Source: Vicinamibacteria bacterium (GTDB taxonomy: Bacteria; Acidobacteriota; Vicinamibacteria; Fen-336). From it: 64,000 nucleotides of DNA. The position numbers were made by a program, and so were the translations under genes. The notes below the pieces were generated by a model that saw only the letters and a list, made by a program, of their open reading frames with translations, did no database searches and had not been told where the DNA came from. Location: assembly GCA_041493035.1 (NCBI GenBank), contig JBGPYB010000001.1:22999-86998 (forward strand), given 5' to 3'. Position 1 is the stretch's first letter; each line of letters opens with the position of its first letter. Shown in pieces: positions 31,534 to 51,318 of this stretch.

Positions 31534-33078
31534 GTGCCGGAAATTGACGCCGAAGGCGAGCCCCGGACAGGCGTTCTCTCCGACGCTGCCGCCATGGGCG
31601 GCGCTCGGCGCCTGAGAGCGATCTCATGGTCCCTGGAGATCGGCATCGCCCTGATCGTCGCGCTGTCCGTGATCGCCATCGGATCGGTTCATCCCTGGGC
31701 CTATGTGCCGCTGTGGATCGCCTCGCTGCTCTCGGGCGTTTTTCTGGTATTGCGCGCCGCGGCCATCCGTTCCCTGCGCCGCGTGCTCGGAGGTCGGCGC
31801 TTCGCCTTCCATCCTTCCGACCGCTGGCTTGCCCTCGACGCCCAGTCGTCCTACGGCCTGACGGGTTGGACCTTCGATCTCTCGCGACCGATCTTTCCGA
31901 GAGCCTGCCTGTTCCGCCCAGGGCTCGTGTTCTTGATTTGGGTGGCGCTCCAACTGGTGCCGCTCCCCTTCGACTGGCGACCGGTTTCGGTCTCTCCGCC
32001 CGACACGACGAGAGGCGCTCTCTTCCTCGCGACGGCGCTGCTCATCCATGTCGCGGCCGTGGCCGTGCTCGACCAGCGCGAGGCCCGGGAACGACTCCGA
32101 AGGGTTGTGGCCGTCTTGGGTTTGGCGATATCGCTGGTCGCTATCCTTCAGCTCGGGGCGGGAGCGCGGCGCATCTATGGCCTCTTCGAGCCGCAAGAGC
32201 CTGGCCTCGTCTTTGGCCCTTTCGTGAATCGAAATCACTTCGCCGGTTACATGCTCATGGTCGTGCCGACGTGTCTCGCGCTTCTCGCCCACGCGTGGCG
32301 TCGCTACGACGAAAGGGTCGGCGAGGCGCCCAACTCACGCCGGCGGCTTCTGGCGCTCACCTCGGCCCAGGGCACGGCGCTCCTCTATGCGGCGATCCCG
32401 GTGTCGGTGAGCATCTCGGCGCTCGTCGCCACGACCTCCCGGGGAGCCCTCACGGCCTTTGCGGCGAGCCTGGCCCTGGCGGCGCTGGGGCTCAGGAGGC
32501 GCGAGCGGGGAGTCCCCGTCTGGGCGATCGCCCTTGCATTCGCGGCCATGGCCGTCTCGTGGTTCGGCTTCGAGCGGCTCGAGATCCGCTTCCAGAACGC
32601 GGCCGCGGACGCTCCCGGTCGGACCCTGGTCTGGAGGGACGCCCTTCATCGTATGGACGGCCGTTGGCTCCGCGGGGCAGGCTTCAACGCCTTCGCCTCG
32701 GCGATGAGTGGCGCCACGCCCTGGGCGTTGCCCCTCGGGGCCGAGGCCTGGCCTAGCGAGATCGAGGGGGCCCGCAGGGCCGGCCGGCCGGCCGGCACCC
32801 GCGTTGCCGAGGGAGTAGCGGGCCTCACCTGGTACCGCGAAGCCCACAACGACTACCTCCAGGTGCTCGTGGAAACCGGGGTGCTAGGGCTCGCGTTGGC
32901 TCTCTGGGCCGCGGTGGAAGTTCTGGCCGCAGCCCGGCGCGACCCGTGGCTCATCATGGCGATGTCCGGTATCCTCATGCACTCCACCGTCGATTTCGAC
33001 CTCCAGATACCCGCCATCGGCGTGCTTTTTGTCGTTCTCGCGGCATCTCGGGTGCGTTCGCGACTCCCACCGTGCTAG
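31534..33078 (+). CDS. O-antigen ligase/Wzy_C-like polytopic membrane protein
   Basis: More than 10 TM segments and the periplasmic-loop motif YREAHNDYLQVLVETGVLG. The true start may be the internal Met near 31594. Confidence 0.7.
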   Translation: MPEIDAEGEPRTGVLSDAAAMGGARRLRAISWSLEIGIALIVALSVIAIGSVHPWAYVPLWIASLLSGVFLVLRAAAIRSLRRVLGGRRFAFHPSDRWLALDAQSSYGLTGWTFDLSRPIFPRACLFRPGLVFLIWVALQLVPLPFDWRPVSVSPPDTTRGALFLATALLIHVAAVAVLDQREARERLRRVVAVLGLAISLVAILQLGAGARRIYGLFEPQEPGLVFGPFVNRNHFAGYMLMVVPTCLALLAHAWRRYDERVGEAPNSRRRLLALTSAQGTALLYAAIPVSVSISALVATTSRGALTAFAASLALAALGLRRRERGVPVWAIALAFAAMAVSWFGFERLEIRFQNAAADAPGRTLVWRDALHRMDGRWLRGAGFNAFASAMSGATPWALPLGAEAWPSEIEGARRAGRPAGTRVAEGVAGLTWYREAHNDYLQVLVETGVLGLALALWAAVEVLAAARRDPWLIMAMSGILMHSTVDFDLQIPAIGVLFVVLAASRVRSRLPPC

Positions 33079-33118
33079 CCTCTTGCCCACGAAGGCGATC
33101 GCTTCCAGGAGAAACTCG

Positions 33119-34305: not shown

Positions 34306-34306
34306 T

Positions 34307-35557
34307 CTAGCGTAGGCCGGCTGGGAACGTCCGCGGGCGGGCGCGAATCGCCACGCGGCTCCGAGCGGCTCTCAGCAGCCGTCGGGCGAGGTCGAAGGGT
34401 CGAGCGATGCGGAGGGCGGTCGCCCGAAGCGGCGACAAGGGCCGCCCATGAAGAGCCTCGATCTGCCCGCGTCGCGGCCAGACCGCGCCGGCCGCGTCCC
34501 GCACCCATGCGAGAGGCCAGGGAAGGAGCGAAGGTCCGCTCCCGAGAACTCGAAGCTTCAAGGCCCCGCGGTACGTCGGGTCGAGCGCGCCGGCCAGGAC
34601 ATGGGCGAGAAGCGCGTCGGCCGGCCGTCGGCCGGGGCGAAGGGGCCCAGAAAGAATGTCCCCCAGACGAAGACCCGCGCAGAGACCCCAGGCGGCTTCG
34701 GCTTCGCCAGGGCGCACGTAGGCCGATGTGAAACCCACGCCTTCCCCCCAGAGGTCCCGGTTACGTTCGTCACCGACGCCGAGGTCGAGGAGATCCGCCA
34801 GCATCCGCGTCGACGGATAGCTGCCAGGCGCAAAACCGTGCTGCGCGATACCATGGACGAGGGCGTGGGCCGCGAGCACGGCGGGAGTCGGAACGGAGAC
34901 ATCGCCAGGGAGGTTCGGGAGGCGCTGGAGCAGCCCTCGCCGACGAAGGCTCAGGGCACTGGCGAACTCCCGTTCGCCTGGGATCCGCACGCCCGGCAAG
35001 AAGCGGTGGACGTCCACGTTCTCGCCAGGACGCCGTTGGAGCGGAGGGAGCTGGTGTTCACACGGCGGCCCGCCCTGGTCCGAGCGGAAGCCCCGCTGCC
35101 GGAGGGCCTCGGCAACCACGCCGAGGTGAGCCTCGTCCACGAGAAAGTCCACGTCGCTGGCCGACCGCGCATGAAGCTCAGTACGTCCCGTGAGATGAAG
35201 CGCCATTCCCTTCAGGACAACAAGCGGCACTCCCGCCTCCGCAGCGCAGGAAGCCGCTTCCCGGCACACCTCCAGGAGACGCTCGTTGTCGAGAGCGGCA
35301 ACGCCCTGGGCCGCGACCAGGGCGCGCGCTCCATGAGGGCCGGCCTCCGCTTCGAGGCGCGGCCGAGGGGTCCGCGCCGCGATACGGGGCGCCAGGTCGA
35401 GGCGCCGTGCGAGCGCGGCCCCCTCCTCGGAGATCGCCGCGAACGCTCGCGCGTCCAGGGGGCTGAAAGCCCGGAGCAGGACCCAGGCTATCTCTTTGGA
35501 AACAACGACTTCCGGCGGACGGAACCGAAGCCCTCCAGGCACGTTTGCCTCAGGCAT
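34307..35557 (-). CDS. PF14907-like (NTP_transf_5) uncharacterised nucleotidyltransferase
   Basis: VVLKGMALHLTG...RSASDVDFLVDE core, typical of the family. 416 aa. Divergent from the C25 peptidase gene. Confidence 0.75.
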   Translation of the reverse strand: MPEANVPGGLRFRPPEVVVSKEIAWVLLRAFSPLDARAFAAISEEGAALARRLDLAPRIAARTPRPRLEAEAGPHGARALVAAQGVAALDNERLLEVCREAASCAAEAGVPLVVLKGMALHLTGRTELHARSASDVDFLVDEAHLGVVAEALRQRGFRSDQGGPPCEHQLPPLQRRPGENVDVHRFLPGVRIPGEREFASALSLRRRGLLQRLPNLPGDVSVPTPAVLAAHALVHGIAQHGFAPGSYPSTRMLADLLDLGVGDERNRDLWGEGVGFTSAYVRPGEAEAAWGLCAGLRLGDILSGPLRPGRRPADALLAHVLAGALDPTYRGALKLRVLGSGPSLLPWPLAWVRDAAGAVWPRRGQIEALHGRPLSPLRATALRIARPFDLARRLLRAARSRVAIRARPRTFPAGLR

Positions 35558-35638
35558 CGCCCTAGCTTATCATTGAGGATCTTGGCTCCCTCCAGAGCTT
35601 GGGGCCGGGGCCTCCCCGCTGCCCTTGGGAAGTGTGCA

Positions 35639-38600
35639 ATGCGGGGAATGGTTCCGAAACTCAAAGTCGCGGCCGCAGCTCTTCTCTTGGTCCTCGTTTC
35701 GCCGGCCTCTGGACGCGCGGGCAGCACCCTCACGACCGCCCCCTACACTCCGAACGGCAACCAGTCCGGCACCGCCAACGGCGACTACGTGAGCGAGGAC
35801 GCGGCCGGAGGAGGCCTGAACTTGCCCTACCACTTCTGGGTCGAGGTCCCGCCCGGGCTGGGCCGCCTCGTGGTGGACATCTGGGACGCCGACATCGGGG
35901 CCGGGGGTGCGGGCGAGGCGGCCGCGGGCCGCGATCGCGCGCGCAGCGTCTTCGACGTGAACGCGGTCTACACCCTCCTCGATCCAACGGGCGCTACCCG
36001 AGCGACGGTGAACGGCACCAATGCTCTGCCGGCATTGGCCGACAACGCGTGGTTCAACCTCTTCAATTCGGTGGTGGGTCTGACCGCCGGGCACTGGGAG
36101 GTTCGAATCGACCAGTCGACGCTCGTCGACGTGGCCGGCAACCGCGACGCCATCAACGCTTTCGGCGTTCGCGCCCACGACGGCACCGCTGGCGCCGGTG
36201 GGACCGAACTGAATGTGTACTACGATTCCATCACCGACGTCGGCGTCAACCCGCCCGCTGTGGCGGGGCTGATCAACACGAGGACCTACGTCGAGTACCC
36301 CTACATCGTCTCGGGCTGCTCGTTCTTCGAGAACGACTTCGACTTCGACACCAACAACGCGACCGGTCAGTCGATCGTCTACGCCAGCCGTACCCCGGCG
36401 ACTTCCGCTGCCTTCAGCCAGACCCTCGCCAATGCCACCCTCTCAGTGAACGATGTCTGGAATCGAGACGCCATCGCGGGCTGGACCAGCGACTCGAGGT
36501 CCACCGAGTACGGGATCTGGTCGCAGACCACCACCATGCGTTCGTATGTCGTTGGTGGCGCGAACAACGGCAACTACGGCAACCTCTACGTCGCCAACTT
36601 CCAGGCGGTCGCGGGCGCCCCGATCGCGAACCCGCCCGCGAACTCGTTCCGCACCTACATTGCCACCGACGCCGGTGGCGCCCCCGTGAAGCCCTATCTC
36701 GAGCAGTTTCTGGGGTATCTGTCGGGGCCACGGACCCCGACGGTGGGGCAGACCACGGTCTTCACGGTCACCGTACGTGTCGTCAACCCGACGCTCCTTC
36801 CCATCGCCTTTGGCGCTCCGGCCGCCGACATCGTGACGGCGAACGTGCTGAGACCCGTGGGCTCGTTGGGCTATCAGGGCGGCGCCCAGGTCACCCAAGG
36901 GACCATCCTCTCGGAGCCTGCCATCGGCGGAACCGGGAACGTGACCTGGAACCCTGGCCCGGTCGCCGCGGGTGCCACCGCGTTCCTCGCCTTCAACGTG
37001 GCCGTCACCCCCACCATGGCCGGCCAGAGGATTCCGGTCACGAACACGCCTGTTTCGGGGAACGGCACCCGCGCCACCTTCGTCGACGAAACCGGCAACA
37101 CCACACAGGCGCGCGCCACCTTCACCCTCGGGCCCGTCTGCGATCTCGCGGTGAACCTGGCCCTCGCCACCCCCGCCGTGGTGTCGTCCCTCCGCGCCCA
37201 CGACGGGCCGCGTGGTGTCGAGGTGGAGTGGGAGACGGCCTCCGAGGTCGGCACCGCCGGATTCGATCTCCTTCGGTGGGACCCCGAGACCGACGGCTAC
37301 GTGACGCTCAACAAGGGGTTGCTCCCGGGCCTCCAGGGCTCTCCTCAAGGGGGGCGGTATCGTTTCGTCGACGAGGGCGCGTCCGCCTCCGCCAAGCTCT
37401 GGTACGTCCTCTCGGAAGCCACGGCTTCGGGTGAGCGGCGCTTCCACGGTCCGTACGAGGTCCAGGTCGAGACAGCGTCCCCCTCAGCGTCGCTCCGCTC
37501 TCACTCGGCCGACGGCTACGATCGCACGGCTCGACGCCGCCCCGCCTCGCAACGAGCGGCCCGGGTGGCGTCGGCCCTGACGACTCTCCCGCTGGCGGCC
37601 CCCGTGGCCGGCGCCACCGCGGTCAAGATCGGCGTCGAGAAGGACGGCCTCTACTACGTTTCGGCGACCTCGATCGCCGCGGCCCTGGGCTGGCCCGCGG
37701 CGCAGGTCGGGGCCTTCCTGTCCACGCAGCGATTCGCGCTGTCCTCGCAAGGGAGGCCCGTGGCCTGGACGCCGTCTTCCGGCGGCCTCCTCTTCTACGG
37801 GCGCGGCGTCGACAGCATCTATACCCGCGACAACGTCTACTGGCTCGGGGTCGGCCACGGGACGATGATGACCACCGCCGACGGCCGCCGTCCGTCGCCG
37901 ACGGGGCCGGCGAGCTTCCTGGACCAGGTCCACGCAGAGGAGAACCGTCTGCCCGCCACGGCGGTCTCGACCGACCCGGAGTCCGACTATTGGTACTGGG
38001 ACTACCTGAGCGGCGGTCATCCCACCTACGGAAGCAGGAGCTTCCCCCTCGCCGCCGTCGCCGTGGATCATGGTGGCGCGCCGGCCCGGCTGACCATCCA
38101 TCTGCACGGGGCCACCACGACGGCCGTCACCGGCGAGCACCACGTCGTCGCACGGCTCAACGGAAGCCCCATCGGCGAGGTGCAGTGGGAAGGGGTCGTT
38201 CCAGCCACCATCGACGTGCCGGTGGGCGCATCGATGGTCCAGGAGGGACAGAACAGCGTGGAACTGGACGCGCTCCTGGACACCGCAGCGCCTTACAGCA
38301 TCGTCTACCTCGACAGCTTCGATCTCACATACCCACGACTCTATCAGGCCGCCGGCTCGGCGCTGTCGTTCCGCGGCGACGGTCATGGCGTCGTGACGGT
38401 CGCCGGGTTCCCGGATCCGGCCATCGGCGTCTTCGACGTGACTGACCCCGCGAACACTCACCGAGTGGCGCGGACCACCGTGACCGGCGCTCCCGGCGCC
38501 TTCCAGGTGAGCCTCGTCCCGGCCGGTCCGGACACTCGCTACGTCGCATCGACTCCGGCGGGCTGGCTCGCGCCGAAATGGATCCGGTCGTATCGCTCGG

Positions 38601-39733
38601 CCGGGCTCAAGTCGCGGCGGGGCGGGGCCGACTACATCGTGCTGACCACCTCCGACCTCATGGCGCCGGCTCGGCGCCTCGCTGCAATGCGCCAGAGGCA
38701 GGGGCTCGTCACTGCGGTGGTGGACGTGGCCGACGTCATGGACGAGTTCGACGCCGGGATCTCGACCCCGCACGCGGTGCAGGCTTTCCTGCGCTGGGCC
38801 GCGGCGCACTGGTCCCCGGCGCCCCGCTCCCTGCTCCTGGCCGGACTCGGCACCCTCGACTACAAGGATTACCTGGGCAACGGCGGCAACCTGCTTCCGC
38901 CCCTCATGGTGTCGACGCCATTCGGGCTCTTCGCCTCTGACAACGACCTCGTGGATCTGGACGGCGACGGCCTGCCCGATCTCGCCGTGGGCCGCGTGCC
39001 CGCCGTCACCGCCGCCGAGCTCGACGCCTACGTCTCCAAGATCGCCGCCTACGAAGCGTCGGACGGTGCCGACTGGAAGGGCCGCGCGGTCTGGGCCTCG
39101 GACAAGGTCGATCCCGGAGCGGACTTCCCGGCCGATGCAGAACGCCTCGTGTCGGGGCTTCCGACAGGGTACTCGGCCGACCGAGTGTACCTGGCCCCGG
39201 GCACTATCACCGCGAGCCGCGCGCAGCTCCTGGGAGACCTCCAGAGCGGGGCCGGCATCATGAACTACGTCGGCCACGGTGGCATCGATCGCCTGGCCGC
39301 CGAAGGACTGCTCGTTTCGACCGATGCCTCGTCCCTCACCAACGCCGAGCGCCTCCCGCTTCTCACGGCCCTGACGTGCACGATCAACCGTTTCGAGGTC
39401 CCGGGCTACGCGTCCCTCGGAGGGGAGCTGGTCAAGAGCCCGTCGGGAGGGTTCTCGGCGGTCTGGGCGCCCACCGGCCTTTCGCTGAACGCGGAGGCGA
39501 ACGCCCTGGGGGCACGCTTCTACGCCACTCTGGCCGGGAAACCCGGGAGCCGGGTCGGAGACCTCGTGAACGATACGCTGCGGGCCTATGCCGCCAGCGG
39601 CGACGAGCCGAGTCTCGTCAGCGTGTACAATCTCCTTGGCGATCCGGCGCTCGTCATGAAGCCGCCGGCATCCCCCGCGAGCCCGCCGCCGAGTGGCGAG
39701 CGGTCGCAGGGGTCGCTTCGACGGACCGAGTGA
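35639..39733 (+). CDS. Large secreted multidomain protein with C-terminal peptidase C25 (gingipain-like) domain
   Basis: Start at ATG 35639 (or 35648), followed by a signal peptide (KLKVAAAALLLVLVSPASG). The C25 region has ADYIVLTTSDL, a His motif (NYVGHGG) and a Cys motif (LLTALTCTIN). The 5' extension of the listed ORF (34448..) is antisense to the PF14907 gene and is rejected. Confidence 0.8.
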   Translation: MRGMVPKLKVAAAALLLVLVSPASGRAGSTLTTAPYTPNGNQSGTANGDYVSEDAAGGGLNLPYHFWVEVPPGLGRLVVDIWDADIGAGGAGEAAAGRDRARSVFDVNAVYTLLDPTGATRATVNGTNALPALADNAWFNLFNSVVGLTAGHWEVRIDQSTLVDVAGNRDAINAFGVRAHDGTAGAGGTELNVYYDSITDVGVNPPAVAGLINTRTYVEYPYIVSGCSFFENDFDFDTNNATGQSIVYASRTPATSAAFSQTLANATLSVNDVWNRDAIAGWTSDSRSTEYGIWSQTTTMRSYVVGGANNGNYGNLYVANFQAVAGAPIANPPANSFRTYIATDAGGAPVKPYLEQFLGYLSGPRTPTVGQTTVFTVTVRVVNPTLLPIAFGAPAADIVTANVLRPVGSLGYQGGAQVTQGTILSEPAIGGTGNVTWNPGPVAAGATAFLAFNVAVTPTMAGQRIPVTNTPVSGNGTRATFVDETGNTTQARATFTLGPVCDLAVNLALATPAVVSSLRAHDGPRGVEVEWETASEVGTAGFDLLRWDPETDGYVTLNKGLLPGLQGSPQGGRYRFVDEGASASAKLWYVLSEATASGERRFHGPYEVQVETASPSASLRSHSADGYDRTARRRPASQRAARVASALTTLPLAAPVAGATAVKIGVEKDGLYYVSATSIAAALGWPAAQVGAFLSTQRFALSSQGRPVAWTPSSGGLLFYGRGVDSIYTRDNVYWLGVGHGTMMTTADGRRPSPTGPASFLDQVHAEENRLPATAVSTDPESDYWYWDYLSGGHPTYGSRSFPLAAVAVDHGGAPARLTIHLHGATTTAVTGEHHVVARLNGSPIGEVQWEGVVPATIDVPVGASMVQEGQNSVELDALLDTAAPYSIVYLDSFDLTYPRLYQAAGSALSFRGDGHGVVTVAGFPDPAIGVFDVTDPANTHRVARTTVTGAPGAFQVSLVPAGPDTRYVASTPAGWLAPKWIRSYRSAGLKSRRGGADYIVLTTSDLMAPARRLAAMRQRQGLVTAVVDVADVMDEFDAGISTPHAVQAFLRWAAAHWSPAPRSLLLAGLGTLDYKDYLGNGGNLLPPLMVSTPFGLFASDNDLVDLDGDGLPDLAVGRVPAVTAAELDAYVSKIAAYEASDGADWKGRAVWASDKVDPGADFPADAERLVSGLPTGYSADRVYLAPGTITASRAQLLGDLQSGAGIMNYVGHGGIDRLAAEGLLVSTDASSLTNAERLPLLTALTCTINRFEVPGYASLGGELVKSPSGGFSAVWAPTGLSLNAEANALGARFYATLAGKPGSRVGDLVNDTLRAYAASGDEPSLVSVYNLLGDPALVMKPPASPASPPPSGERSQGSLRRTE

Positions 39734-39738
39734 GGGGC

Positions 39739-39903
39739 ATGGAACCACGAGACAACTCGAACGTCCCCCCGCCCGGCGGAAAGAAGCCCTACGAGCCTCC
39801 ACAGATAGTGAGCCGCGAGCCCCTCGAAGCTGTCGCCGCCGTCTGCTCGCCCCCCGGCAAGGCGAACCCTGGGGCGTGCCCCACGGGTCCACTCAACTCG
39901 TAG
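39739..39903 (+). CDS. Candidate 54-aa RiPP precursor-like peptide (unlisted small ORF)
   Basis: The ATG lies 5 nt after the C25 stop, with GAGG just upstream. Sequence: MEPRDNSNVPPPGGKKPYEPPQIVSREPLEAVAAVCSPPGKANPGACPTGPLNS. 13 Pro, 2 Cys, C-terminal Ser. Its stop is 3 nt from the stop of the convergent radical SAM gene. Confidence 0.4.
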   Translation: MEPRDNSNVPPPGGKKPYEPPQIVSREPLEAVAAVCSPPGKANPGACPTGPLNS

Positions 39904-39906
39904 GGT

Positions 39907-41010
39907 TCAGCGCCCAACGCCCGGAAGCACGCGGAGCGGGATCGCCTTCCGCCCCTGCCCCGCCTCGCGGGCGAGTGTCGCGCGCTGCCGGGCGCCTGGA
40001 TAGATCACTAGAGGGCTACCCGAGAGCGCCTCCGCCGTCCCGGGGCAGAAGGCGAGGAGGGGCCCGGCTTCCCCCTCTTTTCCGACGACGCCCTTCACTT
40101 CGGCGGAGAGTTCCCGCACTTCTTGAAGGCGCGGCGATCGTTCCCAGATCTCGCGGATCGACGAGTCGTGGAGGTTCCCCACGGCCCGCCGCCACTGGAC
40201 GCAGGGATACACGTTGCCGAAGGGGTCGACAGTGATTCCGGATGAACCCGCGCCGCAGTGCTTGCCGGCCTCCGCAGGTGCCATCAGCGCGTCAGCCTGA
40301 CGGCCCACCTCGGGAGCACTCCCGCCACCGAAGCGCGCGTACTCGAGGCGAAGGAGGTTGAGGACACCGTCGCGCGACGCCGTCAGCTCGAGGGGGCTCC
40401 GGTCGCCGTTGTCGCGGGGTGTCACCTCGGGGTCGAACTGCAACCGGACGCCGAGCCCGTCGGCGATGGCGAACATCCCCTCCACCTCGCCTTCGTTCCA
40501 CGCCGTCAGGGTCGCGTTCATCTTCACCCGCAGACCCAGGGCCACCATCCCGCCCACGTTTCGGAGGAGTCGCTCGAAGCTGCCGGCCACCCGAGTCTGC
40601 CGGTCGTGACTTCCCGCCTGCGACCCGTGGAGGCTCACCTCGACCATGTACGGATCCACTTCGTCCTTGAGCCGCCGCGCGGCCTCGCCGCTCAAGGCGT
40701 GGCCGTTGGACTTGACCCGGACGACGAAGCCGAGCTCTCTCGCTCGCTTCCCCAGGCGCAGGAAGTCCGGATGGGCCAGAGGCTCTCCCCCGGACAGGGT
40801 GAGGTTCAGTACCTCCAATTCCCTCAGATCCTCGAAGAAGCGGATCCATTCCTCCGCGGACATGGGGACGCCGGCGAGGCCGAGGTCGTTGTAACAGAAG
40901 ACGCAGTCGAGGTTGCAGCGGTACGTCAGCTCCACGAGGACGGAAAAGAGAACGTTCTCCCGCCACGTCCTTTGGACGAGACCGGCGAAGCTCGCAGCTT
41001 CAGGAGGCAT
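39907..41010 (-). CDS. Radical SAM enzyme with C-terminal SPASM/twitch-like domain
   Basis: CNLDCVFCYN (CX3CX2C), GGEP, and C-terminal HCGAGSSGITVDPFGNVYPCVQW...GNL...IREIW. Only three C-terminal Cys are seen, so it is twitch-like. Confidence 0.85.
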   Translation of the reverse strand: MPPEAASFAGLVQRTWRENVLFSVLVELTYRCNLDCVFCYNDLGLAGVPMSAEEWIRFFEDLRELEVLNLTLSGGEPLAHPDFLRLGKRARELGFVVRVKSNGHALSGEAARRLKDEVDPYMVEVSLHGSQAGSHDRQTRVAGSFERLLRNVGGMVALGLRVKMNATLTAWNEGEVEGMFAIADGLGVRLQFDPEVTPRDNGDRSPLELTASRDGVLNLLRLEYARFGGGSAPEVGRQADALMAPAEAGKHCGAGSSGITVDPFGNVYPCVQWRRAVGNLHDSSIREIWERSPRLQEVRELSAEVKGVVGKEGEAGPLLAFCPGTAEALSGSPLVIYPGARQRATLAREAGQGRKAIPLRVLPGVGR

Positions 41011-42210: not shown

Positions 42211-42596
42211 CGTCCCCGTGACTGGAGGCGCCACAGGAGATGTTGCGCCAGGCGCCCTGCCGCGCGGCACCGCTCCATGAGGCTGACGGGCATCACGACG
42301 CGGCCGAGGACGAGCCGAGGCGCCACCGGGGCGTCGGGATGAGACGCGCCATCCGCCTGGGTCCAGAGGCGAAACCCGCGGCGTCCCGGGCGATATCCGA
42401 TGACCCTGTGGGCCACGAGACGTCCTGCCTCGCTCACGAAGGCCACGACGTCTCCCGGCCAATAGACGGACGCGGGCGTCAAGGCTACGAGCGTATCGTC
42501 CTCCAGACGGGGGCTCATGCAGTCACCGCTGACGCGGACCCGCAACCCCTCCGCAGCGGCCAGCGAGCGGAGCGGTGCCACCAAACGGGGCGTCAT
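42207..42596 (-). CDS. Soluble S24/S26 (SipW/Sec11-type) signal-peptidase-like protein with Cys at the nucleophile position
   Basis: 129 aa from ATG 42596. VSGDCMSPRL (compare SGSMEP), GDVVAF, VAHRVIG (compare HRV) and WTQADGASHPDAPV...LGRVV (compare TKGDNN..D). No TM anchor. ATGA overlaps on both sides. Confidence 0.6.
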   Translation of the reverse strand: MTPRLVAPLRSLAAAEGLRVRVSGDCMSPRLEDDTLVALTPASVYWPGDVVAFVSEAGRLVAHRVIGYRPGRRGFRLWTQADGASHPDAPVAPRLVLGRVVMPVSLMERCRAAGRLAQHLLWRLQSRGR

Positions 42597-44782
42597 TGAA
42601 TCGTCGCGGTCTTCCCGGCGGTGGCGCCAGTCTCCCTGTGAGAATAGTCCCCATAGTAGTGGCCGTAGTAGTGGCCGTAATAGTAGGAGTGCTTTTCGAT
42701 TTGGGCGCGGTTCAAGACGATCCCCAGGATGCGCGCGCCGGTCTCGGAGATGCGCTCCAGGGTAAAGCGCACAGCCTTGCGGGGAACCATCTCGGCGCCG
42801 GCCACGACGATGACGCCGTCGGCGAACGAGGCCAGGCTCAAGGCGTCCGCCACGGCGCCCATGGGCGGCGTGTCGATCAAGATCCAGTTGTAGAGCCCCT
42901 TGAGGCTTCCCAGGAAGCCGCGCATCCCCTCGTCGGTCATCAGGTCGGCGGGGCTCGGCGCGTGAGTCCCGGACGGAAGGAAGCTCAGGTTGGGCCCCTT
43001 CACGTGCTGGATCGCCTCGAGGGGCTCGCATTTGCCCACGAGGATGTCGGAAAGACCGGGGGTCTTGCGGGCCCTGAGGATCGTGTGGGCGGTCGGCTTG
43101 CGGAGGTCGCCGTCGATGAGGAGCACGTTGCCGTCGAGGGCGGCGAGTGTCGACGCCAGGTTGACCGAGGTCAGGGTCTTTCCCTCTCCGGGGGCTGTCG
43201 AAGTCACGATGAGGACGCGCGGCGAGCGATCGGGCCACGAGTAACGAAGCGCCGTGCGCACGATCCGGTATCCCTCCGAGAAGGGGCCCGGAACGTTGGA
43301 GTTGACGCCCACGACTCTTCCGGCCTTCTTGTCGATCACCTCCGGGACGACGCCCAGGAGGGGGGCGCCCAGGTGTCGACGCACGTCGTCGGGTGTGCGC
43401 AGCGTGTTGTCGAGATACTCGAGAAAGAACGCGAGACCGATGCCAAGCCCCAGTCCCAACAGGAGGCCGTTCAGGATGTCGCGCATCTTCTTTGGACGCA
43501 CCGGCCCGCCTGGGATCACCGCCGCGTCGAGGATACGGATGTTCGTGGCCTTCAGTTCCTGGGCCACGTCGGTTTCCTTGTGGCGCGACAGGAGGCTGCT
43601 CAGGACGCCCTTGGCCGCCTCTAGCTCCCGCTTCCGTGTGTCGTAGGGTATCGCCCGCTGCTCCAGATCGAGGAGCTCGGCCTTCGTGGTTTCCAGGGCC
43701 TCAGAGATGCTCGCTTCCTTGGCCGCCGCCCCACGGTACTCGCTCTCCATTCCCCTTATCACCCGCTGAGCCTCGCGCTTGACTCTCTCGCGCATCTGGC
43801 GGATCTGCCCGCGGACTGTGACGACCTCGGGGTGCTGGTCGAGGTACGTATCGAGGAGCTGGGCCTCACGTCGCTCGAGGTTCGAGATCTCGAGAAGGTC
43901 GGCCTGGACGATGGGATTCCTCGTCACGTCGGGAAGCTCTTCGGGGTGGGAGGCCTTCCGGATCTGCTCGAAGACCGCCTGCTTTTCCAGGCGCTCCGTC
44001 TTCAGCTCGTTCAGCGCCGAGCCGAGCTGCGTGAGCTTCTGGTTCAGCAGTGTGCGGCGCTCTTCGATGTTGACGATGCCTTGTTTCTCCCGGACTTTCT
44101 CGAGGGCAAGCTCGGCCGCTTCGACTTTCTTGCGTTGGTCGTCGACCTGACCTCCCAGCCACTGCCCCGCCTCGGCCGAGGTCTGGTACCGGAGATCGAG
44201 AGCCTGCTCGATGTAGAGCTGCGAGAGGCGATTGGCGAGGCGGGCTGCGAGTTCGGAGCGAAAGGCTTCGGCACTCACGGCAACCACGCGGCTGTTCTTC
44301 GCGGGGCTCACGGAGATGCGCCCGAGGAAGGCGTCGATCATGCCTTCCATGGCCGGCAATTCTCCCGGCGGGGCGGCCAGCATCTCCTTGATTTGCTCAG
44401 GCTTCCGGGGCCCGCCGAACTCGGGATCGTCGAGGAGCCTCATGTCCTCGATGACCCGGCGGGCCAGGGCGCGGCTCTGGAGGATCTTGTACTGCGTTTC
44501 GAAGTATTCCTCTCCCCACCAGCCGGCGTTGACTTCGGAAACCTCCTTGAAGGCGATGACGCTCGGAGCTTGTCGCTCGATCAAGAGCTGGGCTGTGCCG
44601 CTGAAGACCGGACGCATGAGGTTGGTGCGGACGGTTGCGTGCACCGTCACCGCAAGGAAAATGGCCACGATCAGCCAGCGCCGCCGGACCAGGACGTGGA
44701 GATACTCCCAAAGCGCGGTCTCTGTCGAGGGATCAGTCTCCGAGCGGAGTCGCTGTTCGACCTCGGAGGAGGAGTCGATCAT
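42593..44782 (-). CDS. Polysaccharide co-polymerase / BY-kinase (Wzc/GumC-like tyrosine autokinase)
   Basis: Start at ATG 44782, after GGAAGG. Wzz-like N-terminal domain with 2 TM and a coiled coil. Kinase domain (SPRVLIVTSTAPGEGKT, LLIDGDLRKP, ILIDTPP). C-terminal Tyr cluster HSYYYGHYYGHYYGDY. Confidence 0.85.
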   Translation of the reverse strand: MIDSSSEVEQRLRSETDPSTETALWEYLHVLVRRRWLIVAIFLAVTVHATVRTNLMRPVFSGTAQLLIERQAPSVIAFKEVSEVNAGWWGEEYFETQYKILQSRALARRVIEDMRLLDDPEFGGPRKPEQIKEMLAAPPGELPAMEGMIDAFLGRISVSPAKNSRVVAVSAEAFRSELAARLANRLSQLYIEQALDLRYQTSAEAGQWLGGQVDDQRKKVEAAELALEKVREKQGIVNIEERRTLLNQKLTQLGSALNELKTERLEKQAVFEQIRKASHPEELPDVTRNPIVQADLLEISNLERREAQLLDTYLDQHPEVVTVRGQIRQMRERVKREAQRVIRGMESEYRGAAAKEASISEALETTKAELLDLEQRAIPYDTRKRELEAAKGVLSSLLSRHKETDVAQELKATNIRILDAAVIPGGPVRPKKMRDILNGLLLGLGLGIGLAFFLEYLDNTLRTPDDVRRHLGAPLLGVVPEVIDKKAGRVVGVNSNVPGPFSEGYRIVRTALRYSWPDRSPRVLIVTSTAPGEGKTLTSVNLASTLAALDGNVLLIDGDLRKPTAHTILRARKTPGLSDILVGKCEPLEAIQHVKGPNLSFLPSGTHAPSPADLMTDEGMRGFLGSLKGLYNWILIDTPPMGAVADALSLASFADGVIVVAGAEMVPRKAVRFTLERISETGARILGIVLNRAQIEKHSYYYGHYYGHYYGDYSHRETGATAGKTATIQ

Positions 44783-44894
44783 GAGCGCCTTCCGGGAGGG
44801 GAGAAAAACAACCAAAATTCTAACACGGGAACGTCATTCTCGGGCAGCATCCCTCGTCCCTGGTTGGAGATGCGGGCATCTGATACGCTTGGCC

Positions 44895-45003: not shown

Positions 45004-45843
45004 TCAGAGGTCTACGGTCGCGAACATTCCCCCGGACGCCCAACGACGGAACCAGGCGAACAGGTCGTCTTCCTTTGGAGCGCGCCGACCGCCGCGCTTC
45101 AGGGCGGTGGCGGTGGCCGCGCCGAGGGGCTGACCGGAAGAAAGGTCTCTCAGGAGGTCATGTTCGGGACGTGTGAGGTCCAGCCTCCAGACGGAGTAGT
45201 CGTGGCGATATACGGCGGCCCATGAGCTCCGGACTCTCGGCTTGGGGTGGTCGTGGTCGTCGTCGCGGACCGTCTGCAAATAGGCGTTGACGGGATAGCG
45301 GAACGAGAGCAACTCGAAGCCTGGGACCGTGCGGAGACGCGCGCCCTCCCAGGCGGCTTCCGGGATCGCCGCCAGAGCCGCTTCCGAAAGCGGCGGCATC
45401 TCTGGAGCGTCGAACACCCGGGCGACGGCCCGCTCGAGCCGCGCCAGGTCGACCGAGAAGCCACGCCGCCTGATCCCGGAAGCCGTCTCGAGAAACTCCG
45501 GGAGATGGTCGCCGAGTCGATTCAGGCTGTAGCTTCGGGAGGGATGCTGCTTCACGTAGTCGCGGACGAGATCGATGAAACCGCGGTCCCCCAGGAAGTG
45601 CTTCAGGGCCTCGTAGTCGCCCGCCAGGCAATCGTGCATCCGCAGCAGGTACATGTCGTGGTAGACACCCACCCGCTCGACCGGGGAAAGCGTGGGGGAC
45701 GGCAGGATCACCTCCCCAAGCGCCTCCGCCGGGACCTCCCGCTGGGCGTCCGGAGAGGCAACGGCCTCGTCCGTCGTCCCCGGGTGTACGACGACGGCCT
45801 GCATCCAGCGCTGGAGGCCGTCGAGGGGAGTTTCAAGCGCCAT
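45004..45843 (-). CDS. DUF2063 protein (MbnC/BufC/HvfC-like partner of MNIO enzymes)
   Basis: Internal ATG 45843 (MALETPLDGLQRWMQAVVVHP...). VGVYHDMYLLRMHDCLAGDYEALKHFLGD is typical of DUF2063. It overlaps the DUF692 stop by 11 nt. Confidence 0.75.
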   Translation of the reverse strand: MALETPLDGLQRWMQAVVVHPGTTDEAVASPDAQREVPAEALGEVILPSPTLSPVERVGVYHDMYLLRMHDCLAGDYEALKHFLGDRGFIDLVRDYVKQHPSRSYSLNRLGDHLPEFLETASGIRRRGFSVDLARLERAVARVFDAPEMPPLSEAALAAIPEAAWEGARLRTVPGFELLSFRYPVNAYLQTVRDDDHDHPKPRVRSSWAAVYRHDYSVWRLDLTRPEHDLLRDLSSGQPLGAATATALKRGGRRAPKEDDLFAWFRRWASGGMFATVDL

Positions 45844-46687
45844 GGGTGGGAGCGGCGACCTCGGGCTCCTCGCGCCATGCGCGGGCCTTGAGCGCCTCGG
45901 AATGGACGACCTCCAGCTCCGGAATGTTTTCGTCCCATTCGTAGAGGGTCGCTGTGGCCCCCGTTCGGGCCCAGGCCCTGCGATAGAGCGTCCACACGGC
46001 TTCGATGGCGTGGTCGGAGTGGGTGTCGATGATGTGTGTCCCCTTATTGGTGTGGCCCGCAACGTGGTATTGGACCACGCGGTCCGCCGGGACCCTGTCG
46101 ATGTAGACGTCCGGGTCGAACCCGTGGTTGAAGGAGCTGACGTAAACGTTGTTCACGTCGAGGAGCAAGCCGCAGTCGGCGTCCTCGGCGAGGCGCGACA
46201 GAAATTCCCACTCGGGCATCGTCGACGCCACGAACTCGACGTACGACGACGGGTTCTCGAGAACCAGCGGCCGCTCGAGGAAATCCGAGACCTGCTTCAC
46301 CCTTTCGACCGTATGGCTGAGCGCCTCTTCGGTGTAAGGCATGGGGAGAAGATCGTGCGTGTTCCGCCCCAGGATTCCCGTCCAGCAGAGGTGGTCGGAG
46401 ACCCAGTGAGCCCGCGTCCGCTTCGCCAGGTCTTTGAGGTTCTGGAGGTGCTCACGGTTCAGCGGGTCCTTGTTTCCGATCCCGAGGGAAACGCCGTGGA
46501 GCGCCACCGGGTATCGCTCGGCCACCTGGTCGAGGATGTGCATCGGGCGGCCCCCGGTGTTCATGAAGTTCTCGGAAAGAACCTCGAACCAGTCGACGGG
46601 CGGGTTCTTGCCGAGGATGTGGCCGAAATGGACGGTACGGAGACCGATCCCGATGCCGAGATCCGGAAGTCTCCACCGATTGCTCAT
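45833..46687 (-). CDS. DUF692 multinuclear non-heme iron oxidase (MNIO; MbnB/BufB/HvfB-like)
   Basis: GIGIGLRTVHFGHIL..VDWFEVLSENFM..HGVSLGIG...WVSDHLCW...LENPSSY...VVQYHVAGH, covering the full family signature. Confidence 0.9.
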   Translation of the reverse strand: MSNRWRLPDLGIGIGLRTVHFGHILGKNPPVDWFEVLSENFMNTGGRPMHILDQVAERYPVALHGVSLGIGNKDPLNREHLQNLKDLAKRTRAHWVSDHLCWTGILGRNTHDLLPMPYTEEALSHTVERVKQVSDFLERPLVLENPSSYVEFVASTMPEWEFLSRLAEDADCGLLLDVNNVYVSSFNHGFDPDVYIDRVPADRVVQYHVAGHTNKGTHIIDTHSDHAIEAVWTLYRRAWARTGATATLYEWDENIPELEVVHSEALKARAWREEPEVAAPTHGA

Positions 46688-46705
46688 GGGGCTTCGTTCA
46701 GAGTT

Positions 46706-46734
46706 GAGAGGCCACGGCCTCGCCGTGGCCTCTC
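46706..46734 (-). terminator. Strong intercistronic hairpin between the precursor gene and the MNIO gene (attenuator/mRNA-stability element candidate)
   Basis: GAGAGGCCACGG-cctcg-CCGTGGCCTCTC: perfect 12-bp GC-rich stem (13 bp if C18:G22 pair). It sits in the 60-nt gap 46688..46747. No U-tract follows on the transcribed strand. Confidence 0.5.
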
Positions 46735-46747
46735 GGAAGACCGAGAC

Positions 46748-47101
46748 CTACTTCTGTGGCTTCAGCGGGACGGCGCAGCCGCCCTTGCCCTTGCAGGAGT
46801 TCTTTCCGCCGCAGCCGGCGTCGCCGGTCTTGCAGCCGCCCTGGCCCTTGCAGTCGTTCGCGCCCTTGCACTCGTGCTTGGCGGAGGTGGCGCAGCCGCC
46901 CTTGCCCTTGCAGGAGTTCTTTCCGCCGCAGCCGGCATCGCCGGTCTTGCAGCCGCCCTTGCCTTTACACGAGTTCATGCCCTTACAGACATGCTTTTCC
47001 TTCGCGTCGGGCGCTTTGTCGTCAGCCTTCGCCACCTTCGAGCCAGCGACCATGCCGGCCACAACGGCTCCCATGACCTTCGTGAATTTTCTTCGTTCCA
47101 T
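46748..47101 (-). CDS. Sec-exported 12-Cys precursor (bufferin-like / MNIO substrate candidate), 117 aa
   Basis: ATG 47101 follows GGAG. Signal peptide MERRKFTKVMGAVVAGMVAGSKVAKA. Two 39-aa repeats of H-x-CKGxNxCKGxGGCKTGDAGCGGKNSCKGKGGC. It lies immediately upstream of DUF692/DUF2063. Confidence 0.75.
   Translation of the reverse strand: MERRKFTKVMGAVVAGMVAGSKVAKADDKAPDAKEKHVCKGMNSCKGKGGCKTGDAGCGGKNSCKGKGGCATSAKHECKGANDCKGQGGCKTGDAGCGGKNSCKGKGGCAVPLKPQK
46772..47005. repeat. Tandem 117-bp in-frame duplication inside the 12-Cys precursor gene
   Basis: 46772..46888 versus 46889..47005. The first ~66 nt of each copy differ at only a few positions (for example gcgtcgcc/gcatcgcc). The period of 117 nt equals 39 codons. 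Confidence 0.7.
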
Positions 47102-47185
47102 GCTTTCTTGGCTCCTTGCAAAGAAGACACCGACCCCGCAAACAGGCGGGCCGACCGAACTACCAACTCTTTCGAGGCAAACTGC

Positions 47186-47214
47186 TTTATCCGCCCGTCG
47201 CAGGCCCTTGTCAA
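47186..47214 (-). promoter_or_regulatory. Candidate sigma-70 promoter for the precursor/MNIO operon
   Basis: On the minus strand: TTGACA (47214..47209), 17-nt spacer, GATAAA (47191..47186). The -35 element sits inside the palindrome CCTTGtCAAGG. It is about 85 nt upstream of ATG 47101. Confidence 0.35.
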
Positions 47215-47392
47215 GGAGGGATAGCACACCCCCCCTTCGGCGCGGGCCCCTTCGGCAACGAATGGAATACGCATGGGACCCGCCCCCTGGATGAGCGACC
47301 TCGGGCCCGTCCGACGAATAGATCGTCGCCGAGCCACGCGACATTCCCGAGACACGGCCCAGGAGCGTTCGAGGTGCTAGAATTCCCCATCG

Positions 47393-48121
47393 ATGAACCC
47401 CGACCTTGAACGTCTGGTCCACCTCCAGCGCTCCGAAACCGAGCTGAAGCGCGTGGATTCGGAGATGGCGGAGGCCCCCAAGCAGAAGGTTCTTCTCGAC
47501 GAACAGCTTGCCGAGGAGCGCGGTCGTCTGGACGCTGCCCGCGAGGCGCTCGCGGCCGCCCAGAAGGCCCGCCGGCACTTCGAGGGGGAGCTCCAGGACC
47601 TCGAGGCGAAGAGGTCCCGGTACAAGGGACAGCTGATGGAGGTCAAGACCAACAAGGAATACACGGCGATGCTCCACGAGATCGAAACGGTAGAACGCGA
47701 AATCCGCGGACGCGAGGACCTGATCCTGGGCGAGATGGAAAAGGCCGAGACGCTCACCTCCGAGACGAAGCGCGAAGAGGTGACGTTCAAGGAATTGGAG
47801 GCTCGCTACCGCGACGAGGGGCGCGCACTCGATGCGCGAACCGAAGCACTCAAGGCTGAATCGGCCCGGGTGGCCGCGGAGCGCGACGCCGTGGCAGCGA
47901 CGGTTCCGCAGGATCTCCGCGAGCTGTTCCAGCGCGTCGCCAGGCTTCGTGGCGCCGCTGTGGCCGTGGCGAGCGACGGCATGTGCCAACTCTGCCACAT
48001 GAAGCTCCGGGCCCAGATGTACCTCGACCTGAAGCGCAACGACGAGATCGTTCAGTGCCCGGCGTGCAGCCGCATTCTGTACTACGAACCGCCTGTTCCC
48101 GTCGTCGCCTCGCAGCCGTGA
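47393..48121 (+). CDS. COG1579-type coiled-coil protein with C-terminal C4 zinc ribbon
   Basis: Long heptad-like region followed by CQLCHMKL...VQCPACSRILYY. Confidence 0.75.
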   Translation: MNPDLERLVHLQRSETELKRVDSEMAEAPKQKVLLDEQLAEERGRLDAAREALAAAQKARRHFEGELQDLEAKRSRYKGQLMEVKTNKEYTAMLHEIETVEREIRGREDLILGEMEKAETLTSETKREEVTFKELEARYRDEGRALDARTEALKAESARVAAERDAVAATVPQDLRELFQRVARLRGAAVAVASDGMCQLCHMKLRAQMYLDLKRNDEIVQCPACSRILYYEPPVPVVASQP

Positions 48122-49655: not shown

Positions 49656-50656
49656 GTCGGATCCGGATCGCCGTCAGGGCCGGCGCCGGCGCCACGCTGC
49701 TGGCACTCGCGGCAGGTGCCTATCTGGTGGTCGCTCCATCGGGAGACGAGGCGCCTCATCCGTTCAACCAGGACCGGAATGCCGTGTGGCTGGAGCATCG
49801 GTGGCTGGAACGCGAGCACTCTGCGGCGGAGATGGACGGGCTCTTTGCCTCGCTCTCGCGCCACGGAATCCTCTATGCCTTCCCGCACCTCATCCCCTTC
49901 GCTTCCACCGGCCAGCTGCCCGTTCACAACCGGGATCAGATGCGTGCGTTTCTCCGGGCGGCCCGCCGCGCCGCCCCCGAGATGAAGGTGCTTCCGTGGG
50001 TGGGCGGCTTGCGCGTCGGCACCCGGCGCCAACGTCCGGGAACCCTCGATCTGGGCGACCTGGGGCAGCGGCAGCGAATCGTCGCGGAGTGCCGCGGGCT
50101 CATCGACGAAGGCTTCGACGGCATCCATCTGAACGTGGAACCCGTGGATGACGGCAACGACGACTACCTTGCGCTGCTGCGCGCGCTTCGTACCGCCGTG
50201 GGAGACCACACCCTCTCCCTCTCCGCGATACGCCCCGGGCCCTTCTCGCTGCCCGGGGCCCCGAACTTCCTCTGGACGCCGACGTACTACGGGCGAGTGG
50301 CTGCGACCGCGGATCAGGTCGTCGTGATGGGATACGACACCGGGCTCCCCACGGCGTCCCTGTACAAGCGGTACACCGCTTGGGCCGCGGCAACGGTCAC
50401 TTCGGAGCTCGTGGCGCGCCGCTCGCGGGCGCGCGTTCTCCTCGGCATCCCCACTTACGACGACACGAGCCTCATGCACCGAGCCGGGGTCGAAACGCCC
50501 GCCAACGCCATCTCAGGGATTGTGTCTGGGCTCCGAGGCCTCGGAGGGGGCGGCACGTTCGAGGGGGTCGCGCTGTATGCCGAGTGGACGACCGACACCG
50601 CCGATTGGGCCGTCTACGAACGGTTGTGGCGGGGGAGGAATCAGGCGGCGCGCTGA
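49652..50656 (+). CDS. Membrane-anchored hypothetical protein, possible GH18-like TIM barrel
   Basis: The GTG start overlaps the acpS stop. N-terminal anchor. [10 protein letters not shown] resembles the DGxDxDxE chitinase-type motif. The assignment is tentative. Confidence 0.45.
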
Positions 50657-51318
50657 TCCTCGACGATCTCCCCGTCGCGGATCTGAACCACTCGGGACGC
50701 GACCCGCGCGACGGCGGCGTCGTGGGTGATCATGACGATCGTCTGGCCCGAGGCATGCAGCTCGTCGAAGAGGCCGACGATGCCCTTTCCCGACGTGGAG
50801 TCGAGGTTCCCCGTCGGCTCGTCGGCCAGGATCATCGCCGGACGATTCACGAGCGCCCTGGCGATGGCGACGCGTTGCATCTCGCCTCCGGAGAGCTCTG
50901 TCGCCTTGTGGTCCATGCGGTCCTGGAGGTCGACGCGCTCCAGCATGGCTGCCGCCCTCTCATGACGCTCTTTCGTCGGCACCCCGGCGAAGAGGAGAGG
51001 AAGCTCCACGTTTTCGAGGGCGGAGGCGTAGGGAAGCAGGTTGAAGTTCTGGAACACGAAACCGATGCGCTTGTTGCGGATCTCGGCCAGGCGGTTCCGG
51101 TCCAAACCTCCCACCGTCTCCCCCGAGAGGACGTACTCGCCCGAGCTGGGGGTATCGAGACAGCCCAGGATGTTCATGAGTGTGGACTTTCCCGAACCCG
51201 AGGGCCCCACGATGGCCACGTACTCGTTCCCGCCGATGTCCAGGTCGACGCCGCGAAGCGCCTCCACCTCGACGCGCCCGGTGCTGTACACCTTGCGAAT
51301 GCTTCGCATGCGAATCAT
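50641..51318 (-). CDS. ABC transporter ATP-binding protein (MacB/LolD-type)
   Basis: [24 protein letters not shown] and [11 protein letters not shown]. Confidence 0.9.

Follow-up and report, generated by a model that had tools for sequence, protein, structure and literature searches.

A small two-cysteine peptide gene linked to a radical-SAM, PqqD, kinase and protease operon in Acidobacteriota, and its probable role as a modified-peptide precursor

The window analysed here is a 64,000-nt stretch from a Vicinamibacteria bacterium (Acidobacteriota; assembly GCA_041493035.1, contig JBGPYB010000001.1, positions 22,999 to 86,998), and its element of interest is a short open reading frame (ORF) that lies between the gene for a secreted C25-family cysteine peptidase and the 3′ end of a gene for a radical S-adenosylmethionine (rSAM) enzyme. 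The rSAM gene is the last of a minus-strand operon that encodes a Wzc-like protein, a protease, a kinase, a PqqD-family protein and the rSAM enzyme, with genes overlapping by 1–11 nt (Table 1). The small ORF faces this operon from the plus strand and translates into 54 residues, MEPRDNSNVPPPGGKKPYEPPQIVSREPLEAVAAVCSPPGKANPGACPTGPLNS, of which 13 are proline, two are cysteine (Cys36 and Cys47) and the last is serine (Ser54). Its ATG follows the TGA of the C25 gene (39731-39733) after 5 nt (GGGGC), a GAGG at 39732-39735 ends 3 nt before the ATG, and 3 nt separate its stop from the convergent rSAM stop codon (39907-39909, minus strand); the description given in an initial annotation made from the DNA letters proved exact on re-reading. 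We find that the ORF is a real gene under purifying selection, genetically linked to the rSAM, PqqD, kinase and protease enzymes. Judging from sequence comparison, we put at about 0.7 the probability that its product is the precursor of a peptide made on ribosomes and then modified post-translationally (RiPP), processed by the opposite-strand cluster.

The window has a G+C content of 67.6% and is full of long spurious ORFs, apparently including an 802-aa minus-strand frame that overlaps the peptide ORF and is antisense to the C25 gene. Composition alone could therefore not settle whether the ORF is real: G+C at third codon positions is 0.76, against ~0.83 in neighbouring genes, a value that would suit the chance, non-coding frame against which the initial annotation had cautioned. 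The conservation data refute that explanation and leave it a practically negligible probability. Among 45 homologues of equal length, synonymous and nonsynonymous divergence were 0.51 (pS) and 0.15 (pN) with a median dN/dS of 0.18, and nucleotide entropy was 0.46, 0.30 and 1.07 at codon positions 1, 2 and 3, a threefold excess of variation at the third. Several synonymous codons occur at invariant residues, the final Ser being written as TCG, TCC, TCT, TCA or AGC. Homologues are present in 69 of 80 syntenic loci (see below) and, at E <= 1e-3, in 556 clusters of a library of 1.84 billion representative proteins searched with a profile; gene callers predict homologues as hypothetical proteins of 51–72 aa that carry no Pfam domain. 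Pfam and NCBIfam scans of the window peptide gave zero matches, and a hidden Markov model (HMM) of the family has a single match in the window (E 1e-22). The frame is also open upstream, with an alternative GTG start at 39376, which we rejected as it sits within the C25 gene and the homologues are only 51–72 aa long. ATG 39739 was chosen as the start because of this length range, because a Met lies ~17–25 residues ahead of the Tyr motif in the homologues, and because this ATG follows the C25 stop.

The family consensus begins with a variable, hydrophilic N-terminus (median 21 residues), continues as [Y/W]ExPRILxREPLEAVA↓AVC, where the arrow marks the predicted cut, and ends as K-x-[N/D]-P-G-x-C-P-x-G-P-I-x-S; a signal sequence was found in none of the peptides. 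Each of the three elements that the initial annotation had singled out is kept across the family. The first, a YxxPx(L/I) motif of the kind bound by PqqD-like proteins (Y18-x-x-P21-x-I23 in the window), reads [Y/W]xxPx[I/V/L], with Tyr in 177 and Trp in 16 of 194 sequences, Pro in 194 and Ile or Val in 189; a Glu is present in 193 of the 194. The second is the Cys pair: the number of Cys is exactly two in 188 of 197 sequences, with a spacing of 10–12 residues in 156, and the intervening residues are mainly Pro, Gly, Ala and Ser and include the K-x-[N/D]-P-G-x segment, with Lys at −6 (165/194) and Asn or Asp at −4 (137/194) counted from the second Cys. The third, the C-terminal Ser, is the last residue in 195 of 199 sequences; one of the others ends in Thr and three appear to be extended or frameshifted. 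The more distant proteobacterial members keep the leader motif, both Cys and the terminal Ser, with changes in the segment between and after the Cys residues. In one Contendobacter variant (L052, 10355..10537, minus strand) the two-Cys core is shorter and the peptide terminates in SGTSET, its last residue being Thr in place of Ser.

Small residues at −3 and −1 are the classical rule of type I signal peptidases. We infer the boundary between leader and core from an Ala at the predicted −1 position, three residues ahead of the first Cys, that is invariant (194/194), from small residues at −3 (A/V/G/S in 179/194) and from a spacing that matches the leader of linear polyphosphorylated peptides (LPPs; PMC13381572); the predicted −2 residue is Val, Met or Leu. 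In the window this gives a predicted leader of residues 1–33, with A31-V32-A33 at −3 to −1, and a predicted core of residues 34–54, AVCSPPGKANPGACPTGPLNS, which contains Cys36, Lys41, Asn43, Cys47 and Ser54. Asp and Glu are absent from the window core and together make up 2.7% of family cores. Core position 3 is the invariant Cys, and the residue after it (S/A/T/N) is unconserved.

The homologue search next to rSAM loci that the initial annotation had proposed was made on 80 loci fetched from species-level genomes with the rSAM protein as bait (rSAM identity 57–67%), nearly all of them from Thermoanaerobaculia, Holophagales and other Acidobacteriota metagenome-assembled genomes, with a few from Contendobacter, Casimicrobiaceae and Gammaproteobacteria. 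A peptide homologue was found in 69 of the 80 by tblastn followed by the profile HMM. In the tblastn-positive loci the peptide gene is convergent with the rSAM gene, with a median stop-to-stop gap of 21.5 nt, at most 300 nt in 63 of 68 and ranging from −14 to >3000 nt. The commonest order is NTP_transf_5, Wzy_C, protease, kinase, PqqD, rSAM and convergent peptide, and the order protease-kinase-PqqD-rSAM followed by the peptide is kept in 69 of the 80 loci. A second retrieval, which started from divergent peptides and not from the enzyme, yielded four further loci (L081-L084) in which the same genes are arranged differently. One of them has protease, kinase, PqqD, rSAM and peptide on one strand, with the peptide last and C25 convergent (L082), and another has C25, peptide, an intervening gene, protease, kinase and PqqD on one strand (L083). 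In L084 the order is protease, PqqD, C25 and peptide, facing the rSAM gene, and in L081 it is rSAM, peptide and a sigma factor gene. That the linkage survives rearrangement is the best evidence for placing the peptide with the enzyme set, and a small gene beside the PqqD/rSAM operon in so many bait loci and in four independently retrieved contexts fits the reading of the ORF as an RRE-dependent precursor (RRE, RiPP recognition element).

Since gene order and orientation vary among relatives, the convergent orientation is no defining feature. The initial annotation had suggested that readthrough from the rSAM operon, antisense to the peptide mRNA, could be regulatory; this found no support as a feature of the system, as peptide gene and operon run in one direction in L081, L082 and L083 and the gap varies over the range given above. 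A promoter and terminator scan of 39300..40400 gave no promoter-like site; within the rSAM gene it gave two weak terminator-like hairpins that overlap, a number not above that of shuffled sequence (2 vs 0.7 +/- 0.8), and thus no specific convergent-transcription device is supported. In two short, unrelated contigs, L081 (598..1056) and a JGI contig carrying the peptide P0293, the next gene downstream of the peptide encodes an ECF-type sigma factor, a hint that certain lineages have dedicated regulation.

Upstream of the peptide, about half of the bait loci have C25, and the others have Bac_transf, an initiating sugar transferase, or a DUF3344-like gene in divergent orientation. In 24 loci (L006, L008, L014-L018 and others) this DUF3344-like gene encodes a secreted protein of ~520–560 aa, lies on the plus strand about 500 nt past the peptide start and replaces C25 positionally. 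The peptide might instead be a partner of C25, as its substrate, inhibitor or sorting partner, and not a substrate of the PqqD/rSAM/kinase operon. Such a role would fit the same-strand ATG so close to the C25 stop in the window, and C25 directly upstream in the loci just mentioned and in L083 and L084 (in L082 it adjoins the peptide as well). We nevertheless consider it very unlikely. At least 25 loci have Bac_transf or the divergent DUF3344 gene upstream, with C25 several kb off or absent from the flank, and the adjacency to rSAM persists; in L082 the peptide ends the enzyme operon, and in L081 it follows rSAM. In addition, C25 has a signal sequence and the peptide has none, and the conserved [Y/W]xxP is a known RRE-binding motif (PMC13381572). 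The exported product may be acted on by C25 at a late stage, which is compatible with the peptide being a substrate of the operon.

Table 1. Features of the window around the peptide gene (positions in the window).
Feature	Coordinates	Strand	Evidence and remarks
Wzy_C (O-antigen-ligase-like) membrane protein	31534..33078	+	Pfam Wzy_C 5.8e-12
NTP_transf_5 (PF14907) nucleotidyltransferase	34307..35557	-	Pfam 7.5e-16; divergent from C25 gene
Secreted C25-family (gingipain/PorU-like) cysteine peptidase	35639..39733	+	Pfam Peptidase_C25 6e-72
ORF that looks spurious	37484..39892	-	802 aa
Peptide gene (probable precursor)	39739..39903	+	ATG 39739, TAG 39901-39903; 54 aa plus stop
Predicted leader	39739..39837	+	
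Predicted core	39838..39900	+	
Radical-SAM enzyme, 367 aa	39907..41010	-	Pfam Radical_SAM 1.9e-17, SPASM 4e-9
Discrete PqqD-family RRE, ~97 aa	41000..41293	-	PF05402, 55 bits, E 9e-15
P-loop kinase, 306 aa	41290..42210	-	PEPCK/HPr-kinase fold; Pfam ScmC (PF27840)
Archaeal/ER-type signal-peptidase-I-like protease, 129 aa	42207..42596	-	NCBIfam sigpep_I_arch 5e-7
Wzc/EpsF-like chain-length determinant and tyrosine autokinase	42593..44815	-	stop overlaps protease start

The neighbours named in the initial annotation were confirmed, as a PqqD protein, an rSAM enzyme with a SPASM-type domain, a kinase of the PEPCK/HPr-kinase fold and a nucleotidyltransferase of family NTP_transf_5. The rSAM enzyme carries the CX3CX2C motif at Cys32/36/39, which leaves no room for an N-terminal RRE, and its gene overlaps the PqqD gene by 11 nt. 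Its C-terminal domain has just three Cys that are invariant among 81 sequences (252, 270 and 322; CX12GX4C plus one) and so appears to resemble a Twitch-type domain with a single auxiliary cluster more closely than a seven-Cys SPASM domain. The enzyme scores below the cut-off of every NCBIfam equivalog or curated maturase model. The PqqD protein, which probably starts at a TTG overlapping the stop of the kinase gene (TTGA), is closest to lasso and PQQ PqqD models (1e-7 to 3e-8, below cut-offs). In the kinase a GRSGAGKS P-loop is followed by LSDD, and an AlphaFold2 model (pLDDT 88.6) matched ATP-PEPCK (E 5e-8) and the HPr kinases 1knx (E 4e-6) and 3tqf (E 2e-4) in Foldseek; searches of PDB chains with the single sequence and with a profile gave P-loop-level matches only (PEPCK ~0.05, HprK 0.33).

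The protease has Cys26 in the nucleophile position (GDCMSP) and His63 in the general-base position, and scores against other models were 0.012 for Pfam S24 and 4e-3 for SipW. Its AlphaFold2 model (pLDDT 89.9) has human SEC11C and SEC11A as top Foldseek matches, followed by LexA, lambda cI, UmuD and SpsB; confidence in the predicted enzyme folds is good. The nucleophile column holds Cys in 54 of 69 homologues and Ser in 13, the His is present in all 69, and Asp82 and Asp88 are invariant in a 28-sequence alignment (A3). The column is probably catalytic, because alternation of Cys and Ser beside an invariant His fits the expected pattern; the protein appears to be a Cys/His version of the S24/S26 fold, an unusual replacement of Ser by Cys in a signal-peptidase fold, and is a candidate leader peptidase.

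Among the flanking genes, an NTP_transf_5 homologue, where present, usually lies two genes upstream of the protease on the same strand. Wzy_C of the type seen in L011 occurs in 50 of the 80 loci and in most relatives stands between the NTP_transf_5 and protease genes; genes for a peptidyl-prolyl isomerase (PPIase) and an outer-membrane beta-barrel protein are also near, on the NTP_transf_5/Wzy_C side. The Wzc/EpsF-like gene heads the protease operon in the window genome, as its overlap with the protease start codon indicates, and tblastn found no match to it in the 80 loci; the encoded autokinase has a Tyr-rich tail, YYYGHYYGHYYGDY. The C25 protein scores 194 bits against NCBIfam PorU, below the cut-off of 420. 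The C25 ORF as listed (34448..39733, 1761 codons) is ~397 codons too long, its 5′ part overlapping NTP_transf_5 on the other strand, and the start is most likely ATG 35639, with a signal peptide. From 31534 to 44815 all genes are assigned (Wzy_C, outer-membrane protein, PPIase, NTP_transf_5, C25, peptide, rSAM, PqqD, kinase, signal-peptidase-I-like protease and Wzc). An unrelated RiPP cluster of the bufferin type adjoins at 45004..47070 (minus strand), with the MNIO enzyme BufB (45833..46687, 356.8 bits vs a cut-off of 310), a DUF2063/HvfC-like partner (45004..46062) and a BufA2-like precursor segment at ~46868..47068 within ORF 46748..47998 (52.6 bits vs a cut-off of 60).

The closest described system is that of the LPPs of Bacillota (LppA/LppB/LppK/LppS/LppN/LppD; Popov et al., Nat Commun 2026, PMC13381572). 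Its core set consists of LppS (Ser29/His68/Asp93), a leader peptidase like signal peptidase I of the archaeal type, the discrete RRE LppB, the HprK-like kinase LppK, the NTP transferase LppN and an MsbA-like exporter, and its clusters are embedded in capsule loci (PMC13381572). The LPP leader YxxPxVLxHQxIxFETxxS is cut after T−1, the cleavage needs the RRE, and Ser3 of the core is polyphosphorylated (PMC13381572). The window cluster shares with it a discrete PqqD-type RRE, an HprK-like kinase and an uncharacterised NTP transferase (LppK and LppN being compared by description), the setting in polysaccharide-synthesis loci, a YxxPx[V/I]L leader with the same spacing from Tyr to the cut, which is experimentally mapped in LPPs and predicted here, and small residues at −1 and −3. 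The alignment that we propose for the leaders reads Y-x-x-P-x-[V/I]-L-x-[H/R]-[Q/E]-x-[I/L]-x-[F/A]-[E/V]-[T/A]↓x-x-[S/C] and would place the LPP cut at A33↓A34 and the LPP phosphoserine (+3) at the invariant first Cys. The proteases match in fold and family (SEC11A/C, sigpep_I_arch), and His63 and Asp82/Asp88 are spaced like S29/H68/D93, but the nucleophile, Ser29 in LppS, is mostly Cys in this family.

The two systems differ in that a radical-SAM/Twitch enzyme is added here, in that the core here is conserved and just ~21 aa long, carrying two Cys and a fixed Ser at its C-terminus, whereas LPP cores are long and variable, and in that the protease nucleophile is Cys in ~80% of members. The genes from 31534 to 44815 include no MsbA-type ABC exporter, the closest ABC ATPase being encoded at 50641..51318, past the bufferin cluster; Wzy_C and C25 genes are linked here; and the hosts are Acidobacteriota and some Proteobacteria, whereas the LPP paper calls LPPs restricted to Bacillota and mentions neither radical-SAM enzymes nor Acidobacteria (PMC13381572).

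The product could on this basis be an LPP-type linear phosphopeptide, its Cys pair forming a disulfide or a metal ligand and the rSAM enzyme acting elsewhere or in a non-thioether reaction (epimerisation or a C-C link). The identity of the protease, RRE, kinase and NTP-transferase set with the LPP core set favours this, as do the reduced, Twitch-like auxiliary domain of an rSAM enzyme that has no close characterised relative and a Pro/Gly-rich core with few classic acceptor residues. We think it unlikely, given that the rSAM gene is the most constant neighbour of the peptide, that its product has no RRE of its own while the gene overlaps PqqD, that both Cys are near-invariant while the residues around them vary, and that described LPP clusters contain no radical-SAM enzyme.

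Phosphorylated and phosphoglycosylated lasso peptides offer a second comparison. Linear lasso precursors are phosphorylated on their C-terminal Ser by homologues of HPr kinase, and in pseudomycoidin this phosphate receives a hexose from a nucleotidyltransferase (lasso tailoring reviewed in PMC8498205). Paeninodin and pseudomycoidin share with our system the [Y/W]xxP leader, a discrete PqqD protein (B1) and an NTP_transf_5-type nucleotidyltransferase that extends the phosphate (PMC8498205), and differ in having a cyclase where the rSAM enzyme stands here. We rejected a lasso peptide as the product, there being no Asn-synthetase-like cyclase and no transglutaminase-like B2 among the genes from 31534 to 44815, no Thr at −2 and no Asp or Glu acceptor at core position 7–9. 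Sactipeptide and ranthipeptide systems likewise combine an RRE-dependent rSAM enzyme bearing a SPASM- or Twitch-type domain with a small Cys-containing core after the leader. They differ in having no kinase, nucleotidyltransferase or signal-peptidase-like protease; here the auxiliary domain has just its three Cys, and the rSAM enzyme falls far below their curated maturase models (StsB, 82 vs 625 bits). SynChlorMet (ScmC/ScmD/ScmE/ScmF) and HPr-rel-A (HprK_rel_A plus PqqD_rel_X) are systems defined in NCBIfam/TIGRFAMs that bring together an HprK-related protein, a PqqD homologue and PqqE-like rSAM/SPASM proteins in one cassette. The window kinase belongs to the broader Pfam family ScmC, whereas there is one rSAM gene here and two there, and we rejected membership on the scores (ScmC 14.3/125, ScmD 17/100, ScmE 84/400, HprK_rel_A 17.2/200 and PqqD_rel_X 22.4/35 bits against cut-offs). 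The window system thus appears, from its sequences, to work like a hybrid of an LPP/phospho-lasso tailoring module and a radical-SAM Cys-modifying module.

As a modified precursor, the peptide would be bound by the discrete PqqD protein through Y18-x-x-P21-x-I23 and the R26-E27-x-L29-E30 stretch of its leader. The rSAM/Twitch enzyme, which has no recognition domain and would hence depend on PqqD for recruitment, would modify the core at or through Cys36 and Cys47; thioether cross-links are the most economical guess as to its product and the most likely one, and the Lys at −6 and the Asn/Asp at −4 from Cys47 are candidate cross-link partner positions. The kinase would phosphorylate Ser54, and NTP_transf_5 could extend the phosphate, for example with a sugar or a nucleotide. 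The signal-peptidase-I-like protease, with its Cys or Ser nucleophile and His, would cut after Ala33 (A-V-A↓A-V-C) and free the Pro/Gly-rich core of ~21 residues. Linkage to Wzy_C, C25, Bac_transf and Wzc genes suggests that an extracytoplasmic step follows, at which the product would probably undergo further handling linked to exopolysaccharide synthesis. Our evidence is comparative, and we infer all chemical steps from sequence, genomic context and published analogues.

Several observations weigh against this assignment. Among the 11 peptide-less loci, at least four (L021, L027, L040, L069) stop at or within ~40 bases of the rSAM gene and the contig of L068 stops 195 bases past it, but the peptide is absent from L044, L060, L066, L070 and L076 although downstream sequence is present. 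L048 has the full protease-kinase-PqqD-rSAM operon and no family peptide; a different Y..P..L peptide is found instead, encoded ~1 kb downstream by a small ORF (10137..10361, minus strand) with a lasso-like leader, RRPYVSPRLTELGDLRSITLGG, which may be a swapped precursor. In the window itself the peptide follows C25 on the strand opposite to the enzyme operon, and NTP_transf_5 lies within the flanks of just 40 of the 80 loci. As to the chemistry, Ser54 is a putative phosphosite, since that of LPPs is core Ser3 and not the C-terminal residue; the rSAM enzyme, with three C-terminal Cys, matches no characterised thioether synthase above cut-off. The kinase is assigned at superfamily level only (Foldseek TM-scores 0.3–0.47), with 14–20 bits in NCBIfam HprK_rel_A, HprK_rel_B and ScmC against cut-offs of 125–200.

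A more specific extension would make the matured peptide a cell-envelope building block and no free antibiotic-like product, namely an rSAM-cross-linked, phosphodiester-linked peptide-polysaccharide conjugate in which the Ser phosphate, extended by the nucleotidyltransferase, serves as attachment point for a polysaccharide from the surrounding exopolysaccharide genes, the co-operonic Wzy_C protein (O-antigen-ligase/O-oligosaccharyltransferase-like) does the joining and the secreted C25 peptidase the trimming or anchoring; we regard this as quite unlikely.

The peptide gene was previously unnamed, and its family has no Pfam or NCBIfam model, which is why annotation pipelines miss the peptide or call it hypothetical; we found no description of the system in the searchable literature, itself incomplete. 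The assignment would give a concrete substrate to a widespread, unannotated gene set that is common in soil and sediment Acidobacteriota and has relatives in Contendobacter, Casimicrobiaceae and other Proteobacteria. It would also mean that the recently described kinase/NTP-transferase/signal-peptidase route by which phosphorylated peptides are made extends beyond Bacillota and is here combined with radical-SAM chemistry, for which the fixed C-terminal Ser, the invariant −1 Ala and the two Cys are direct mutational targets. That clusters of this kind recur within polysaccharide loci, both here and in Bacillota, points to a common role in the cell envelope or in biofilms.

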